Shown here one piece after another: positions 12,169-61,797 of a DNA stretch of 64,000 nt. Below the pieces are notes generated by a model, which saw nothing but the letters and a program-made list of their open reading frames with translations, was not told the origin of the DNA and ran no database searches. Origin of the DNA: Candidatus Amesbacteria bacterium (GTDB taxonomy: Bacteria > Patescibacteriota > Microgenomatia > CAZETR01 > Amesbacteraceae). A program made the position numbers and the translations under genes. The stretch lies in contig DAHXMV010000004.1 of the NCBI GenBank assembly GCA_027371535.1, positions 3,666 to 67,665 of the forward strand, given 5' to 3'. The first letter of the stretch is position 1. Each line of letters starts with the position of its first letter.

Positions 12169-12999
12169 ATGAGAAAATTTTTGGGTTGGGTGGTTCTTGT
12201 CGGCGTTTTGGTAGCCGGGGCAATACTGGCAGGCCAGGTAGCCAACGCCTGGAACAACAGACACTGGGACGGACGGAACAGGTTTACCCTCATTTCCATG
12301 AATAAAAAAGATCAGACAGCCGAGCTTTACAGTATAGATCCGGAATCAGGACAGGCTATTCATCTGGTATTGCCGTCGGAAATGGAAGTGGACACCATCG
12401 GCGGCAGGGGAGTATGGAAGATCAGTGCAGTAGTGTCCCTGGCAGATAAATACGGACCGGTTTGGGCAGCTGATTCCATTGCCAATTTCCTGGATATTCC
12501 TTATACGGCAGTGAAAGAAAAGATCGATGTTTGGGATAAACTATCCTGGTGGAATCTGAGCCGGGGGGTAGATTTTCAGGACATCAGTTTAAAAAATACC
12601 GATCTGGTAAGGAAAATTGAGACACCGGACGGAGAGACAGTATTGGGGTTGACCAGCTGGTGGCAGAATAAAGCCGGTGATTTGTTTTATTCATCAAATT
12701 TAGCCAAGGAGGAGCTGAATGTGGAAGTATATAACACCACCAACGTGACCGGGTTGGCATCCAGAGTAGCCCAGCTTTTGGAAAATGCGGGGGTAAAAGT
12801 TACCATCACCGGAGAAGCTGGCGAAATAGCCGGCAGATGTCAGGTGGCCAGCTCACATCAGATGGTGTCAGATCCCGGGGTTGAATGGATTACCCGGTTT
12901 ATGTCATGCAGTCGGATAGAAAAAAATGATCTGGATACAAAACAGGTGCAGATATATTTAGGTAATGATTATGTCAGCTGGCTGAAGGGAGCGTTCTAG
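12169..12999 (+). CDS. Membrane-anchored protein with a LytR_C (LytR/CpsA/Psr C-terminal) domain
   Basis: N-terminal TM helix. C-terminal VEVYNTTNVTGLASRVAQLLENAGVKV matches the LytR_C consensus (V.V.NGtg..GlA......L...G..v). Confidence 0.45.
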   Translation: MRKFLGWVVLVGVLVAGAILAGQVANAWNNRHWDGRNRFTLISMNKKDQTAELYSIDPESGQAIHLVLPSEMEVDTIGGRGVWKISAVVSLADKYGPVWAADSIANFLDIPYTAVKEKIDVWDKLSWWNLSRGVDFQDISLKNTDLVRKIETPDGETVLGLTSWWQNKAGDLFYSSNLAKEELNVEVYNTTNVTGLASRVAQLLENAGVKVTITGEAGEIAGRCQVASSHQMVSDPGVEWITRFMSCSRIEKNDLDTKQVQIYLGNDYVSWLKGAF

Positions 13000-16103: not shown

Positions 16104-17084
16104 ATGTACAATCATTTTATGGATGATGATAAAACAACCAAGTTTAATCGAGCCTGGTTACCCTACTTTGATGACTTCCTCCTGTATATTAAGACCCAAA
16201 ATTATTCCGAAGAAACTTTGTATAATTATGAACGGGATTTAAGATATCTGATAAACTTTCTGGATGACGAAAAACTGCACTACAAAGCCCTAAATAAACA
16301 AGTTTTTAACCGTTTCAAGGCATGGTTAATCAGCCGGGACAGAAAACTGCCGATTACGGGGCTTACAGCGGGTCGCAGCCTTGAGCCAGGCTCAATAAAC
16401 AGGTGTTTATCGTCAATCCGTACCTATTTGAGGTACCTGATAGATATAGACCAAAAAGTTCCGGTTCCCCCCGATGCCATAAAAATGGTAAAGGCCCCAA
16501 TAAAACATAAACAAGTGGCGGAATTGGACGATCTGATCCGTCTGGTTGAATCACCGGAAAAATTTGAAAAAGATGTTTTGATCGGTTTGAGAAACCGGGT
16601 GATGCTGGAAGTATTAATTTCCACCGGGATGAGAATTTCGGAGCTGGTATCACTGAATAAAAACCAACTGGACGGGACCGGCCGGTTATTTATCAGGGGT
16701 AAAGGCAAAAAAGAAAGATTTGTGTATCTGACGGATCGGGCAACCAAGTGGCTGAATCTATATCTGTCCAAGCGGGACGATACAGCCCCGGCGATGTTTG
16801 TGCCATACAGGGGACTTAACGGGGGGAAAATAACCCGAAGGGTCTCCCCTAACTATTTACAGGCAAAAATCAAGATATACAGGGAAAAGTTAAAAATAAA
16901 TGTGCCGACTTCGGCACATTCCCTGCGGCACGGATTTGCCACATACCTGGCCGAATCGGGAGCCAATCCGGCGGCAATACAGGTACTTCTGGGCCATGAG
17001 TCGCTTGATACGACTACCAGATATGTACATGCTTCTGATAAGTTTGCCGAAGAAACGCATAGAAAATTCCACCCCGTAAAATAA
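16104..17084 (+). CDS. Tyrosine site-specific recombinase/integrase (XerC/XerD family)
   Basis: N-terminal core-binding domain (LLYIKTQNYSEETLYNYERDLRYL). Catalytic region HSLRHGFATYLAESGANPAAIQVLLGHESLDTTTRYVHA shows the R..H..R..Y motif. The gene is flanked by AT-rich non-coding stretches of about 400 bp (5') and about 230 bp (3'). Confidence 0.85.
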   Translation: MYNHFMDDDKTTKFNRAWLPYFDDFLLYIKTQNYSEETLYNYERDLRYLINFLDDEKLHYKALNKQVFNRFKAWLISRDRKLPITGLTAGRSLEPGSINRCLSSIRTYLRYLIDIDQKVPVPPDAIKMVKAPIKHKQVAELDDLIRLVESPEKFEKDVLIGLRNRVMLEVLISTGMRISELVSLNKNQLDGTGRLFIRGKGKKERFVYLTDRATKWLNLYLSKRDDTAPAMFVPYRGLNGGKITRRVSPNYLQAKIKIYREKLKINVPTSAHSLRHGFATYLAESGANPAAIQVLLGHESLDTTTRYVHASDKFAEETHRKFHPVK

Positions 17085-37127: not shown

Positions 37128-37154
37128 TGGTTTGAAAGTACTTTCAGACACAAC

Positions 37155-37187
37155 AATCCCGCCCCAAACGGCGGGATTGTTTTTTTG
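37155..37187 (+). terminator. Rho-independent terminator after pilA
   Basis: AATCCCGCC-CCAAAC-GGCGGGATT hairpin followed by GTTTTTTT. Confidence 0.75.
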
Positions 37188-44674: not shown

Positions 44675-44909
44675 GACTATCCGGCTCCAGACTGTTTAAA
44701 AGGTCGCCGACGGTTTTGATGTCGTTTATTTTATCCTCGGGTAATATAAAGTCCAGAGCGTCCTGCATTCTGGTAATCAGGTCGGCCAGCTGCTCCGGGG
44801 TGAGATTGAAATCCGGCAGGAATTCACTATCCGGCAGGATATCTTCCGGCCGGAGATGGTATTCATTGGCCAGAAACTGGATAACGGCCTTTTTGAGATT
44901 AGGATTCAT
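44655..44909 (-). CDS. Acyl-carrier-protein-like four-helix protein lacking the phosphopantetheinylation serine (DSL replaced by FNL)
   Basis: Alignable to ACP helices I to IV (SF...LPDFNLTPEQLADLI vs SF...LGADSLDTVELV; ILPEDKINDIKTVGD vs EIPDEEAEKITTVQ). It occupies the conserved acpP-rnc position. Confidence 0.45.
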   Translation of the reverse strand: MNPNLKKAVIQFLANEYHLRPEDILPDSEFLPDFNLTPEQLADLITRMQDALDFILPEDKINDIKTVGDLLNSLEPDSHEPEPV

Positions 44910-45267
44910 TTTGATCTATTTTTTGATCTTTAACTAATTTTCCCAAAGCCCCGTTAATAAAGCCAGGACTGTTGGCGCTGCCAAATTCCTTGGCCAATTC
45001 AATGGCTTCGTCAATAATAACCTTGTAGGGGGCGTTTTTGTCAATAGCAAGTTCGTAAACGGCCAAACGGAGAATGGCTAAATCGATGGGATTGAGCTTG
45101 TCCAGCGGCCATTCCGGGGCCGCATCGGAAATTAAGGGATCAATTTCAGACAATTTTTTCCAAATTGGCTTTACCATATTATCGGGTTTTTGCTGAAATT
45201 GGGCTGAAAACAGGTGCTGAACCAGGGTAACCCGGTTTTTGTGACGCGGATCGTAAGCAGTTTTCAT
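44899..45267 (-). CDS. nusB: Transcription antitermination factor NusB
   Basis: All-helical, about 120 aa; KNRVTLVQHLFSAQF...LAILRLAVYEL fits the NusB family. Confidence 0.8.
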   Translation of the reverse strand: MKTAYDPRHKNRVTLVQHLFSAQFQQKPDNMVKPIWKKLSEIDPLISDAAPEWPLDKLNPIDLAILRLAVYELAIDKNAPYKVIIDEAIELAKEFGSANSPGFINGALGKLVKDQKIDQNES

Positions 45268-45297
45268 AATAAAACCAGTATAACAAGTTAAAAAAAT

Positions 45298-45756
45298 ATG
45301 TTAACAGGCAAAGAAAGTATTATACGTCGATGTATCGATTCATGGTACACTGATATTATGACTCCACTTTCGAGGTGGAAAATGGAAAAAGATGACGAGG
45401 AAAAAATCTGGCTGGTGTTAGTAAATGAGCTGGTAAAAATCCAAGGTAACCAGGATATGGAAGCGCTTTTAAAAGTGATTTTGACAGATACAGAACAGCT
45501 GATAATAGGAAAAAGACTACTAGCATTGATAATGGTGAATCAGGAATTTACCGATGTGCAGATAGCCAAAAGACTTCACCTTACGCGGGAAACTGTTAAA
45601 AGATTAAAGCTGAGATTTAGACATGAGGATGATTTGCGGAAACCAGTTAAAGCTATCGTGAGGCAAATGGAACAATCGGATATTTTAAAATCTTTACTTA
45701 AGAAATTACTTAGTTATGCAATTCCCGCTTTGGGAGGGAGGGCGCCAAGGAATTGA
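45298..45756 (+). CDS. TrpR-like YerC/YecD-family DNA-binding protein
   Basis: LTDTEQLIIGKRLLALIMVNQEFTDVQIAKRLHLTRETVKR is the TrpR_YerC helix-turn-helix region. The true start may be the internal Met at 45358. Confidence 0.55.
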   Translation: MLTGKESIIRRCIDSWYTDIMTPLSRWKMEKDDEEKIWLVLVNELVKIQGNQDMEALLKVILTDTEQLIIGKRLLALIMVNQEFTDVQIAKRLHLTRETVKRLKLRFRHEDDLRKPVKAIVRQMEQSDILKSLLKKLLSYAIPALGGRAPRN

Positions 45757-45955
45757 CAATGTATTATGCGTCGATGTATCGACGCATAATTTTGTTTTAA
45801 GGAGTTTTGTCGGTTATGACCAAACCGTTTCTGAAATGCATAGGTATAGTCTGTCATGACCTTAAATTGATTGATAAAAGTTTGGGGCGTTTTTTGGGAT
45901 TTATAAAATAAATAAAATATTTCATTTATTAACTTGTGTAACTATAATAATCATA

Positions 45956-46390
45956 GTGAGGGGAAATAAGTCAAAAGGAATAAAAGTTTTTTGTATTGTT
46001 GGAGTGATAGTAGCATTATTCACATTGATGGTCTTTATAAAGACAAGAGATTTGAGAGAGTTAGAGAGTGTTGCGTCAAAAATCCAAGTGAAGACAGGAC
46101 AATTAATAAGCAGATCGAGTCAAAATTCAGGTAATGTGTTGGGGAAGCCAATATATGCGGATCTAAATTTGTATTATAAACCGCTTAATAATTACTCTAA
46201 AAGAGATTTATATAATGAGATAATATCGTTACTTGAAAAAAACAATTGTAAAAGAGATTCAATAAACATTGTGCCTGATTATTATAGCGGCTCTATGAGG
46301 GGCGATACAGACAGTTTCGCTTTAATAAGAGTAGGTGTATATATTTATCCGGATATTAATCTGGTAGGAATTAGATACACACATAGATAA
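45956..46390 (+). CDS. Hypothetical AT-rich membrane-anchored protein
   Basis: N-terminal TM only; low GC. Confidence 0.3.
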   Translation: MRGNKSKGIKVFCIVGVIVALFTLMVFIKTRDLRELESVASKIQVKTGQLISRSSQNSGNVLGKPIYADLNLYYKPLNNYSKRDLYNEIISLLEKNNCKRDSINIVPDYYSGSMRGDTDSFALIRVGVYIYPDINLVGIRYTHR

Positions 46391-46419
46391 CTGAATGTTG
46401 TGGAATTTAAAAAAGAAGG

Positions 46420-46593
46420 CTAGCGGGTGACTTTGAGACCTTTGTAAAAACCGCAGTAGTGGCAGGCAGAATGGGAGCGGGTGGGCTTGTGGCAATTCGG
46501 ACATTCTACCAGAGTCGGCAGTTTCAGACGAATGCTGGCCCGGCGTTTGCCCTGGCGCATGGTGCTATTTCGGCGTTTTTGTAAGGGAGTCAT
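46420..46593 (-). CDS. rpmF: 50S ribosomal protein L32
   Basis: Manual translation: MTPLQKRRNSTMRQGKRRASIRLKLPTLVECPNCHKPTRSHSACHYCGFYKG, with the L32 CxxC...CxxC zinc ribbon. Below the ORF-track cutoff. Confidence 0.8.
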   Translation of the reverse strand: MTPLQKRRNSTMRQGKRRASIRLKLPTLVECPNCHKPTRSHSACHYCGFYKGLKVTR

Positions 46594-46594
46594 A

Positions 46595-48583
46595 TCAGTT
46601 TGGTTCGATGATGTGTATTTTATCTTCTTTGATTAACTGACGCAACAAGGGATATTCCTGAAGTTTGGGCAGGGTTTTTTGAGCAACGGATCTGGCTTTT
46701 TCAATTAGGGAGAAGTCATCATAGGTGGCGACTTTAAAATCGGGGAAACCATGCTGGGCGGTGCCGTAAATTTCACCCGGACCACGGTATTTGAGATCGG
46801 CTTCCGCCAATTCCATGCCCGAATCCAGGTGTTCCAGGTTTTTTAAACGGGTTATGCCTGTTTCATCACTGGTGAAAAGCAGGCAGTAGGACTGGATCTG
46901 ACTGCGACCCACCCGACCACGCAATTGGTGCAACTGGGCCAGCCCGAAACGTTCAGCCCCCTCAATGATCATCAGAGCGGCTCCCGGAATGTCCAGCCCG
47001 ACTTCCACCACCGGAGTGGCAACCAGAATATCCAGTTTTTTGGACCGGAATTTATCCAGAACATCATTTTTTTCCGCAGCTTTTAATTTCCCGTGCAGAA
47101 GACCCAATTTAAGGCGGGGGAAAATTTCCTGCAGGTGGATAAATTCGGCTTTGGCGGCTTTGACGGAAGTCAGGGTGTCGCTATCCTCGATAAAAGGGCA
47201 GACCCAAAAAGCTTGAGAGGCGTATTTAACCATTTGATCATTTAACCATTTGTATGAGGATTCGCGTTTGTATTCCGGAACCACCCAGGTTTTGACGGGC
47301 AACCTGCCGGCGGGTTTGGCATCCAATACCGACAGGTCCAGATCTCCGTACATGGCGAGGGCAACCGTTCGGGGTATGGGGGTGGCGGTCATAGTCAGAG
47401 TGTGGGGGGTTTCCCCGATTTTGGCGGCCCGGGAGCGCTGCATGACACCGAAACGATGCTGTTCGTCGATGACAACCAAACCCACATCGGAAAAATTCAG
47501 ATTTTGGGACAGGAGGGCATGGGTACCGACAACAATTTTTAATTTTGTATTTTCAATTTTTAATTTTGAAGCGCCGGTGATCAGGCCGATGTCTACACCG
47601 TATGGCTTAAACATGGCGGAAAAGGTCTGAAAATGCTGCTCGGCTAAAATTTGGGTGGGAGCAAGAATTACCGTCCTGAAGCCGTTTAAGTGAGCAACGT
47701 ATGCCGCCACGGCGGCTACTACGGTTTTACCGCTGCCGACATCGCCTTCCAACAGACGGTTCATAGGCCGGCTGAGACTCAGATCCGACAATATTTCTTT
47801 CAATGACCGGTTTTGGGAGGCAGTAAGGGAAAAAGGCAAGTTGTTCATAAATTTCAGAATTTTTTCCTGATCGACAATAAAAGCGTGAGTCAGTCTGGTC
47901 CGCTCCCAGATATCTTTTCTGATAAGTGATGCCAATTGAAGCAGGAACAATTCGTCAAAAGCCAGACGGTTTCTGGCGACCCGGGCGGTTTCCAGATTTT
48001 GGGGGAAATGAACATCTTTCAGGGCTGCCAGCCAACCGGGCATATCAATATCCGGGGGAAGAATTTCGGCCGTGTCCATAACTGATAATAAGTGATGGAT
48101 TTTGGTGCGGAGCCATTTGGATGAGATTCCGGCGGTTTCCGGATAAATCGGGACAATCCTGCCCATATGCAATAATATGCCGGAAGGAATTTCAAAATCC
48201 GGAGAAACCAGGGCGGGTAGATTTTTGTAATAATCCACCTTGCCCCAAAGGGCAATTCCCTGGTTCTTGGCCAGGGATTTTACCAGGTAAGGCTGGTTAA
48301 ACCAGATAACATTGATGCTGCCCGTGCCGTCGGTGACCTGGCCAACCTGGATAAACTTTCCCCGGTGGGTAAATTCGTTTTTCAAGGAAGTGATTTTTCC
48401 GATGACGGTAGATGTTTCTCCGGGCTGAAGCCGGTCAACAGCTGAGGTAAATGTCCGGTCTTCATAACGAAAGGGTAAGTGGTACAGAAAGTCAAAAACG
48501 GTTTTAATACCCAGTTTTTCCAGTTTTTTACCCAATGCCCCTCCGATTCCCGGGAGAGTGGTTACCGGAGAAGAAAGATCCAT
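46595..48583 (-). CDS. recG: ATP-dependent DNA helicase RecG
   Basis: Wedge/OB N-terminal domain, Walker A GDVGSGKT, DEQHRFGV, TATPIPRT and QLRGRVGR motifs. Confidence 0.9.
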   Translation of the reverse strand: MDLSSPVTTLPGIGGALGKKLEKLGIKTVFDFLYHLPFRYEDRTFTSAVDRLQPGETSTVIGKITSLKNEFTHRGKFIQVGQVTDGTGSINVIWFNQPYLVKSLAKNQGIALWGKVDYYKNLPALVSPDFEIPSGILLHMGRIVPIYPETAGISSKWLRTKIHHLLSVMDTAEILPPDIDMPGWLAALKDVHFPQNLETARVARNRLAFDELFLLQLASLIRKDIWERTRLTHAFIVDQEKILKFMNNLPFSLTASQNRSLKEILSDLSLSRPMNRLLEGDVGSGKTVVAAVAAYVAHLNGFRTVILAPTQILAEQHFQTFSAMFKPYGVDIGLITGASKLKIENTKLKIVVGTHALLSQNLNFSDVGLVVIDEQHRFGVMQRSRAAKIGETPHTLTMTATPIPRTVALAMYGDLDLSVLDAKPAGRLPVKTWVVPEYKRESSYKWLNDQMVKYASQAFWVCPFIEDSDTLTSVKAAKAEFIHLQEIFPRLKLGLLHGKLKAAEKNDVLDKFRSKKLDILVATPVVEVGLDIPGAALMIIEGAERFGLAQLHQLRGRVGRSQIQSYCLLFTSDETGITRLKNLEHLDSGMELAEADLKYRGPGEIYGTAQHGFPDFKVATYDDFSLIEKARSVAQKTLPKLQEYPLLRQLIKEDKIHIIEPN

Positions 48584-57215: not shown

Positions 57216-57295
57216 TTAACTTGTAAATTATAACATATGTATAACTCTCCCCTAACCCCTCCCTTAAATTAAGGGAGGGGGATAAAAGGGGTGAG

Positions 57296-61320: not shown

Positions 61321-61347
61321 AAAAAACCCCGCTTAACGGGGTTTTGG
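61321..61347. terminator. Bidirectional rho-independent terminator
   Basis: AAAAAA-CCCCGC-TTAA-CGGGGTTTT: A-run and T-run on either side of a GC hairpin. Confidence 0.6.
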
Positions 61348-61754: not shown

Positions 61755-61797
61755 TAAAAAAACCTCCTATTTACGGAGGTTTTGATTTATTTTTTTG
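61755..61797. terminator. Bidirectional rho-independent terminator
   Basis: AAAAAAA-CCTCC-TATTTAC-GGAGG-TTTTGATTTATTTTTTT. Confidence 0.6.

Follow-up and report, generated by a model that had tools for sequence, protein, structure and literature searches.

A 64,000-nucleotide (nt) stretch of contig DAHXMV010000004.1 from a Candidatus Amesbacteria bacterium, referred to here in its whole length as the window, contains a gene for a repressor of the TrpR/HisR(YerC) type that is enclosed by two copies of one palindrome, the first lying at the predicted promoter and the second just past the stop codon. Two palindrome copies flank the gene in 79 of 89 homologous Patescibacteria loci, and we consider it reasonably probable that both are operators of the encoded repressor, which would make the locus a dual-operator, self-enclosed autoregulatory unit. 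What appears to be new, judging from the sequences, is that an autorepressor of the TrpR/HisR family has a leaderless promoter and, conserved at its stop codon, a second operator. No description of the bracket arrangement or of the Patescibacterial subfamily was found in the literature searched, an incomplete collection, nor did it yield a paper on TrpR-like proteins in Patescibacteria or the candidate phyla radiation (CPR).

The repeat is 30 nt long, and its two copies (AAAGTATTATACGTCGATGTATCGATTCAT at 45314-45343 and AATGTATTATGCGTCGATGTATCGACGCAT at 45758-45787) stand in direct orientation, 444 bp apart, identical at 26 of 30 positions and with an exact core of 14 nt. They align with a score of 20, compared with 12 at the 99th percentile of the null. 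For the 14-mer CGTCGATGTATCGA with up to 2 mismatches, 0.24 matches are expected per window, and those observed fall at the two sites only (the palindrome, matched also on the opposite strand, accounts for a third); none of 100 shuffles gave the observed count, and a chance origin of the pair is excluded. Downstream, the string ATGCGTCGATGTATCGACGCAT (45766-45787) has 9-nt arms around TGTA and extends to a perfect palindrome with 13-nt arms and a 2-nt centre, starting 6 nt past the stop codon (overall layout GTATTA-TGCG-TCGA-TGTA-TCGA-CGCA-TAAT). The upstream copy is built of two TCGA blocks 8 bp apart (GTATTA-TACG-TCGA-TGTA-TCGA-TTCA-TGGTAC) and is imperfect because its right arm reads TCGATTCAT instead of TCGACGCAT. 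A first, sequence-only reading of this DNA had quoted both sequences exactly and was right to call the downstream palindrome perfect, but it gave the arms as 10 bp and set the upstream copy about 9 nt too far to the left. The 64-kb window holds no third copy of the repeat and no other CGTCGA-N4-TCGACG-like site beyond chance. The same reading had counted a lack of additional sites against its own proposal, which is too strict, since the pair is clearly under selection even with no further site in the 64 kb.

The longest open reading frame (ORF) begins at 45298, and the true start is the ATG at 45358 (MTPLSRWK...), because residue 10 of the homologs aligns to residue 2 of the shorter protein version and because the N terminus, MTPLSRWK or MPHVSRxKL, is conserved in the family; the protein is then 132 amino acids (aa) long. 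On its own it matches Pfam PF01371 with 19.5 bits (E = 0.0011), under the 27-bit gathering score, while at E <= 0.01 the profile recognizes 33 of 36 family members (best, 1.9e-10), and a precomputed PF01371 match is on record for most homologs. Compared with the sequences of the Protein Data Bank (PDB), the family profile retrieved 3FRW (5.7e-7), 3KOR (3.7e-6), and 3G1C (1.7e-5), with E. coli TrpR at 0.5. The AF2 model of the window protein is all-helical (pLDDT 87.8, pTM 0.75), and its top 34 Foldseek matches in the PDB are all TrpR, 3KOR, 3FRW, or 3G1C chains (probability, 0.98-1.00; TM-score normalized to the target, 0.70-0.77). These results bear out the earlier assignment of the gene as TrpR/YerC-like, and as modeled, the encoded protein is of the TrpR fold, nearest to HisR (YerC), in a distinct subfamily of longer proteins that have motifs of their own at the N and C termini.

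The N-terminal motif (MPHVSRxKL/MTPLSRWK) is invariant in the family, and the C-terminal one, Y-x-x-x-A-A-G-G-R-[VI]-x-P, falls at residues about 95-132, where the model is of low confidence (pLDDT 57-60). Both are absent from TrpR and HisR, and they could be DNA-contacting arms or an oligomerization motif. Used as the only query of a word-indexed protein search, the window protein matched nothing but itself. The relatives go by the database names "YerC" or "Trp family regulator," from Levybacteria, Saccharimonadales, and "Patescibacteria group," and a scan of the GTDB species representatives confirmed 239 of them, including Microgenomates, Parcubacteria, and Saccharibacteria lineages; a single genome may have as many as three paralogs. 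Clade-specific patterns found no relative in the GTDB representative contigs, so that the near clade of the window is not among these representatives. Many contigs with a Patescibacteria-type gene (L019-L024, L031, L033, and others) are titled "uncultured Gammaproteobacteria bacterium" or "Lysobacterales," which are probably placeholder or wrong taxonomic labels on metagenome-assembled genomes.

Homologous loci were taken from Joint Genome Institute (JGI) metagenomes, GTDB genomes, single look-ups, and the window, and in each the 150 nt that follow the stop codon were aligned to the 100 nt that precede the start codon. Windows drawn at random from these loci served as the null (mean, 7.6; threshold, 12, the 99th percentile). 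The upstream and downstream segments match above this threshold in 76 of the 89 loci, with a median score of 20 for cognate pairs versus 8 for noncognate ones. In three further loci the second copy overlaps the gene's last codons at the 3' end or lies just past a truncated ORF, and in one locus it is 634 nt away. The matched segments are palindromes of 22 to 42 bp with a median arm of 13 nt, perfect in 44 of the 76 upstream and 38 of the 76 downstream copies. Their placement follows the gene, as the upstream copy usually ends 0 to 20 nt before the ATG and the downstream copy usually starts 0 to 50 nt after the stop, with a median of 453 bp from center to center. The sequence of the palindrome itself is wholly different between lineages (for example, TGTATAATAAGTTAGTATATTATACA, TGCATCATATATCGATATATGATGCA, TATCATATATTAATATATGATA, ACTTCAATACAGCGCTGTATTGAAGT, and AAACTATACGATATATCGTATAGTTT). 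Paralogs of one genome also have different palindromes (five of six pairs), while the copies within each locus match. The recognition-helix variant goes with the center of the palindrome (e.g., TR-E-TV with ATCGAT, TR-I-TV with AAGTTAGT, and T[QE]-A-TV with ATTAAT), a correspondence that is confounded by phylogeny. A second copy like that in the window is missing behind the control genes: E. coli trpR scores 6.5, which is at background, and the five yerC/hisR loci from Firmicutes score 6.5 to 9, below the threshold of 12, and end in ordinary terminators.

The number of TCGA blocks at 8-bp spacing varies among the four loci L001 to L004 and the window, with one block in the upstream copies of L002 and L004, two in the window, in L003, and in the downstream copy of L002, and three in L001; the units of the proposed operator in the clade of the window are 8 bp long, xGCx-TCGA. 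Such variation by whole units makes a single dimer on the outer arms only unlikely and would fit tandem binding. Mismatches within the palindromes, read on the sense strand as G.T and A.C, number 16 and 16 in the upstream copies and 17 and 16 in the downstream copies, and such equal counts give no sign of selection on an RNA stem. When the four half-sites of each of 57 loci split two against two, 33 splits are same-side, 27 within-copy, and 2 cross. The same-side splits are an asymmetry common to both copies, that is, true direct repeats with polarity.

In seven or eight of the 76 loci the palindrome is present a third time within 3 kb, as an exact or nearly exact copy (L011, 451-468; L088, 3952-3969; L030, 2806; L056, 3945; L075, 2321; L085, 5734). 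In L011 and L088 it stands about 100 nt upstream of a short-chain-dehydrogenase-like ORF, which from this position is a possible member of the regulon.

The upstream copy lies where a repressor would be expected to act. Among 92 distinct upstream regions, the end of a -10-like hexamer falls most often at 6 nt (30 loci) or 7 nt (17 loci) from the start codon that follows, against 0 to 16 loci for any other distance, and many family loci can be read as TTGACA-18-TATGAT-6-ATG. TTGAC adjoins the left edge of the upstream palindrome in 19 of 76 loci. Shine-Dalgarno (SD)-like motifs were seen in 5 of the 92 loci, and the window genome is itself SD-poor, with such a motif in 8 of 39 long ORFs. With few SD sites and a -10 element directly before the ATG, the transcripts are probably leaderless, which suggests widespread leaderless mRNAs in the window genome. 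The repressor mRNA would probably be one of them, with a predicted start at or next to 45358. On a leaderless transcript, the upstream palindrome would fill the space from the -35 element to the transcription start site (TSS), outside the gene's own mRNA, and this is the classical position of a repressor operator. The extended -10 element is shared by the window and L001 to L004 as TGrTACAsT, and the upstream block is kept in these loci at only 41 to 54% protein identity, with the invariant columns ATG.ATCGA..CATG.TACA.T. Given this conservation and the overlap with a promoter whose -10 element ends 6 nt before the start, the upstream copy is most likely the operator of autorepression, and the sequence-only reading was very probably right in proposing it as an autoregulatory site. 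Elsewhere in the window, several ORFs have a -10-like hexamer 4 to 8 nt before their ATG (e.g., at 12169, 40436, and 22812). The features of the locus are collected in Table 1.

Table 1. Positions in the window of the repressor gene, its two flanking palindrome copies, and associated motifs
Feature	Coordinates	Strand	Remarks
O-up, upstream copy	45314..45343	+	Core ATACGTCGATGTATCGATTCAT at 45322-45343; proposed autoregulatory operator
Extended -10-like element TGgTACACT	45343..45351	+	Right edge of upstream palindrome; ends 6 nt before ATG
TrpR/HisR(YerC)-like repressor gene	45358..45756	+	132 aa plus stop; N terminus conserved in homologs
TTGACA	45753..45758	+	Overlaps stop codon; left edge of downstream copy
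O-down, downstream copy	45758..45790	+	Perfect palindrome 45763-45790; proposed auxiliary operator
T-tract TTTGTTTT	45791..45798	+	Directly after downstream palindrome; jointly the form of an intrinsic terminator

From the repeat, its conservation and co-variation in the family, the promoter-like geometry, and the protein fold, we infer the binding of both sites by the protein, the sign of the regulation, and the ways in which the 3' site could act. The upstream operator (45314-45349) would overlap the extended -10 promoter of the leaderless transcript, and because of this overlap a bound repressor would exclude RNA polymerase, resulting in negative autoregulation. Tandem dimers would sit at 8-bp spacing on the operator units, as for E. 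coli TrpR. The downstream operator (45758-45790) would be bound by the same protein and act together with the upstream site in one of two ways. The first is cooperative binding through a DNA loop of about 440 bp around the gene, like lac O1-O2 or lambda OL-OR. The second is a roadblock that would seal the gene against read-through from or into its neighbors, which would explain why both sites hug the gene boundaries. In the window only, the palindrome with its T-tract would also be the gene's intrinsic terminator. Autorepression at the promoter is, as a prediction, well supported by position, conservation, and family precedent.

Several observations weigh against the two-operator reading. The 64 kb hold no further target of the repressor, and the right arm of the upstream site in the window is degenerate, with 4 of 12 positions differing. 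About eight loci (about 9%) have the upstream palindrome only, so the 3' copy is dispensable in some lineages, and because the loci are phylogenetically related, the counts overstate the independent events. The promoters are consensus predictions. The spacing of the operators has no helical phasing at 10 to 11 bp (best R, 0.16; p = 0.73) and so lends no positive support to looping. The lack of phasing is not decisive, as loops of about 450 bp need little of it. Finally, in the within-copy splits each palindrome keeps its self-complementarity while diverging from its partner, an excess that a plain double-stranded DNA (dsDNA) operator model does not predict for neutral positions. It may come from hairpin or cruciform pairing, from symmetric tuning of affinity, or from template-switch correction of quasi-palindromes, which is a mutational process.

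A wider reading, which we think possible but rather doubtful, is that of a self-insulating unit across Patescibacteria, in which the repressor on its two boundary operators would gate transcription into and out of the gene, with the sites possibly read as cruciform or hairpin. If this is true, the 3' site would be a protein-dependent roadblock or terminator, and the level of the repressor would set the read-through into the neighboring genes. Reading the sites as cruciforms or hairpins would explain the perfect internal symmetry of each copy amid drift from its partner.

The other explanations fare less well. According to one of them, the downstream palindrome is only an intrinsic terminator and resembles the promoter site by accident or as the remnant of a local duplication. 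In the window it does have this form, since the hairpin begins 6 nt after the TGA and consists of a 12-pair stem (5 G-C pairs), a 4-nt loop, and the TTTGTTTT tail, with a folding energy (dG) of -18.6 kcal/mol (z = -5.3), and the palindrome with the T-tract is the sole terminator-like match in the 1.9 kb scanned (44800-46700). Canonical terminators with a hairpin and a T-run also exist elsewhere in the genome (e.g., 37152-37181), and some loci without a second copy, such as L069, carry an ordinary GC-rich hairpin at that position. The window copy is then probably operator and terminator both, a form that the sequence-only reading had overlooked. However, the T-tract is found in the window only when close relatives are compared, only 7 of 76 downstream copies are followed by a T-run (5 or more T in 8 nt), and many of the downstream stems are nearly pure A/T, so the downstream copy was rejected as a conserved terminator in general. 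The match between the copies is moreover kept in 79 of 89 loci while the palindrome changes completely between lineages, and the 17 G.T versus 16 A.C mismatches run contrary to selection on an RNA stem. As the sole explanation of the downstream copy, termination is therefore unlikely.

The sequence-only reading had taken the downstream palindrome as a second site controlling the divergent or downstream gene. In this form, with the 45956 ORF or a 31-codon ORF at 45816 as the target and the upstream site also controlling the divergent nusB, the explanation has as little probability as termination alone. It draws on the next ORFs of the window being codirectional and on the TTGACA that adjoins the downstream copy, on the left arm of the upstream site, which on the minus strand gives a TATAAT facing nusB, and on the few loci with third copies about 100 nt upstream of neighbors (L011 and L088). 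Across the family, however, the copy stays at the 3' end of the regulator whatever follows. In 27 of 68 loci the gene that comes next is a convergent one, and in the syntenic L002 the palindrome lies within the 58 nt between the stop of the regulator and the stop of the convergent rpmF-recG. TTGAC adjoins only 3 of 76 downstream copies, which led us to reject a second promoter as a general rule, and the TTGACA of the window is of doubtful significance, with no -10-like hexamer closer than CATAAT (45784-45789), at a distance of 25 nt. The syntenic loci lack the 144-aa ORF at 45956, whose start is preceded at 7 nt by a TATAAT of its own.

It is very improbable that the palindromes act as RNA hairpins, one at each end of the mRNA, and serve stability, translation, or mutual pairing, possibly bound by protein. 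Both copies are foldable, the upstream one better on the sense strand (-9.3 versus -4.6 kcal/mol) through G-U pairs, and internal symmetry is kept on divergence from the partner (27 within-copy versus 2 cross splits). Against this, proteins of the TrpR family bind dsDNA (PMC9413887), and a search of Rfam gave no family match, only a chance-level match to a microRNA (miRNA) hairpin. The RNA reading was rejected because G.T does not exceed A.C in either copy, because the promoter geometry puts the upstream copy between the -35 element and the TSS, untranscribed from the promoter of the gene itself, and because the upstream fold is no better than that of shuffled sequence (z = -1.07).

A present or former mobile or recombining cassette, with the palindromes as terminal repeats or hairpin recombination sites (RAYT/REP, IS200/IS605, or attC-like), is hardly credible, even if matching palindromes flank the gene, several paralogs occur per genome, weak matches to HTH_23/HTH_28/HTH_29 and to an IS630 N-terminal domain were obtained, the GC content of the gene (37 to 39%) is below the window mean of 46%, and many palindromes are long and perfect (44 of 76 upstream copies), since the order nusB / gene / rpmF-recG is conserved among relatives at 65 to 74% NusB identity and the 64 kb hold two copies only. 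RAYT proteins are HUH nucleases, and repetitive extragenic palindromes (REPs) are dispersed in tens to hundreds of copies. The likeness to such systems is that of a single-copy gene between matching palindromes that its product is thought to recognize, but here the product is a 132-aa, all-helical helix-turn-helix protein of the TrpR fold without a catalytic domain, in conserved synteny. The paralogs carry different palindromes, so that there is no common recombinase site.

In its layout the proposed dual-operator unit resembles two classical repressor systems. The lac operators O1 and O2 are 401 bp apart, and in phage lambda OL and OR flank cI. The proposed unit shares with both the two copies of a repressor site several hundred base pairs apart (444 bp here), one of them on the promoter and the other downstream, and shares with lambda that the operator clusters bracket the repressor gene itself. 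It differs from them in that the second site hugs the stop codon, in that the layout belongs to a whole protein family and not to one operon, and in the lack of helical phasing.

Of the known regulators, E. coli TrpR has the same fold, with 6FAL, 1ZT9, 1TRO, and 1TRR among the best Foldseek matches (target TM-score, 0.70-0.77). Its gene has a palindromic operator that overlaps its own promoter, as proposed for the gene in the window, and the outer arms are TGTA...TACA-like in both cases. TrpR recognizes the motif TGTAcTnGTnnACnAgTACA, with half-sites separated by an eight-base-pair spacer (PMC9413887); the tandem binding of TrpR dimers (title of PDB entry 1TRR) parallels the variation by whole 8-bp units in the clade of the window. 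In contrast to TrpR, the window protein is 132 aa long, with an MPHVSR/MTPLSRW N terminus and a C-terminal extension of about 35 aa, the sequence similarity of the family profile to TrpR itself is marginal (E = 0.5), and the palindromes of the family are 22 to 42 bp long versus 20 bp for TrpR.

By profile, the closest characterized relative is HisR, that is, YerC of B. subtilis (3FRW, 3KOR, and 3G1C, with the E values given above). The sequence-only reading had called the motif of the YerC family poorly characterized, which is out of date, as YerC is HisR, with a defined 20-bp palindromic motif, cacTTTAnnnnnnTAAAgtg or TGTAnTArnnnnyTnTTACA, and with his and transport genes as targets (PMC9413887). 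trpR and about half of the hisR genes are autoregulated via palindromic operators (PMC9413887), and HisR resembles the window system both in these upstream sites and in palindromic operators that differ between lineages. The HisR motif upstream of his or histidine-transport genes was not found here, where the window sites read ATrCGTCGATGTATCGAykCAT and the neighbors are nusB, rnc, rpmF, and recG. HisR is also shorter, under 100 to 110 aa (PMC9413887), versus 132 aa here.

Patescibacteria have very small genomes with few transcription factors, experiments have revealed almost nothing of their regulation, and the bracketed repressor supplies a concrete element in this poorly understood group. 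There is now a predicted cognate site for nearly every member of a family that is widespread in these bacteria. The roughly one hundred matched repressor-operator pairs, together with paralogs that carry different palindromes, could serve to decipher the code by which the TrpR fold recognizes its sites and to build synthetic circuits. The conserved second operator proposed at the stop codon is absent from the characterized TrpR and HisR genes, and what a repressor would gain by enclosing its own gene becomes a testable question of design. The upstream regions also indicate leaderless, consensus-type sigma-70 promoters in these organisms, as predicted from their sequences.

The surroundings of the gene are conserved as well. 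The order rnc, 84-aa ORF, nusB / regulator / rpmF-recG is kept in L002 to L004 and in the P0003 locus, which was compared by gene order, and the locus is a stable chromosomal resident. On the upstream side, the left arm of the palindrome (45318-45324) reads CGTATAATAC on the minus strand, with a perfect TATAAT facing the divergent nusB operon, so that the same operator could affect nusB-rnc transcription; a promoter scan instead proposed TTAACA-16-TATACT at 45304-45277 for this strand.

Downstream, directly past the palindrome and the T-tract, there is a 31-codon ORF, MTKPFLKCIGIVCHDLKLIDKSLGRFLGFIK (45816-45911, plus strand). In front of it, at 45801-45806, stands AAGGAG, and strong SD-like sites of this kind are few in a genome as poor in SD motifs as this one. 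The 144-aa ORF that follows (45956-46390, plus strand) has 30% GC, versus 46% for the window, and a hydrophobic N terminus; it has no match in Pfam or NCBIfam, and the TATAAT before its GTG start lies at 45943-45948. In L002 the convergent rpmF-recG follows directly after the regulator, and the ORF is probably a lineage-specific insertion. Other long perfect hairpins of the window are found at 16899-16920, 37152-37181, 57256-57280, 61323-61345, and 61759-61783. The one at 37152-37181 is followed by TTTTT, the canonical terminator form, and those at 61323 and 61759, with flanking A-runs and T-runs, resemble bidirectional terminators.

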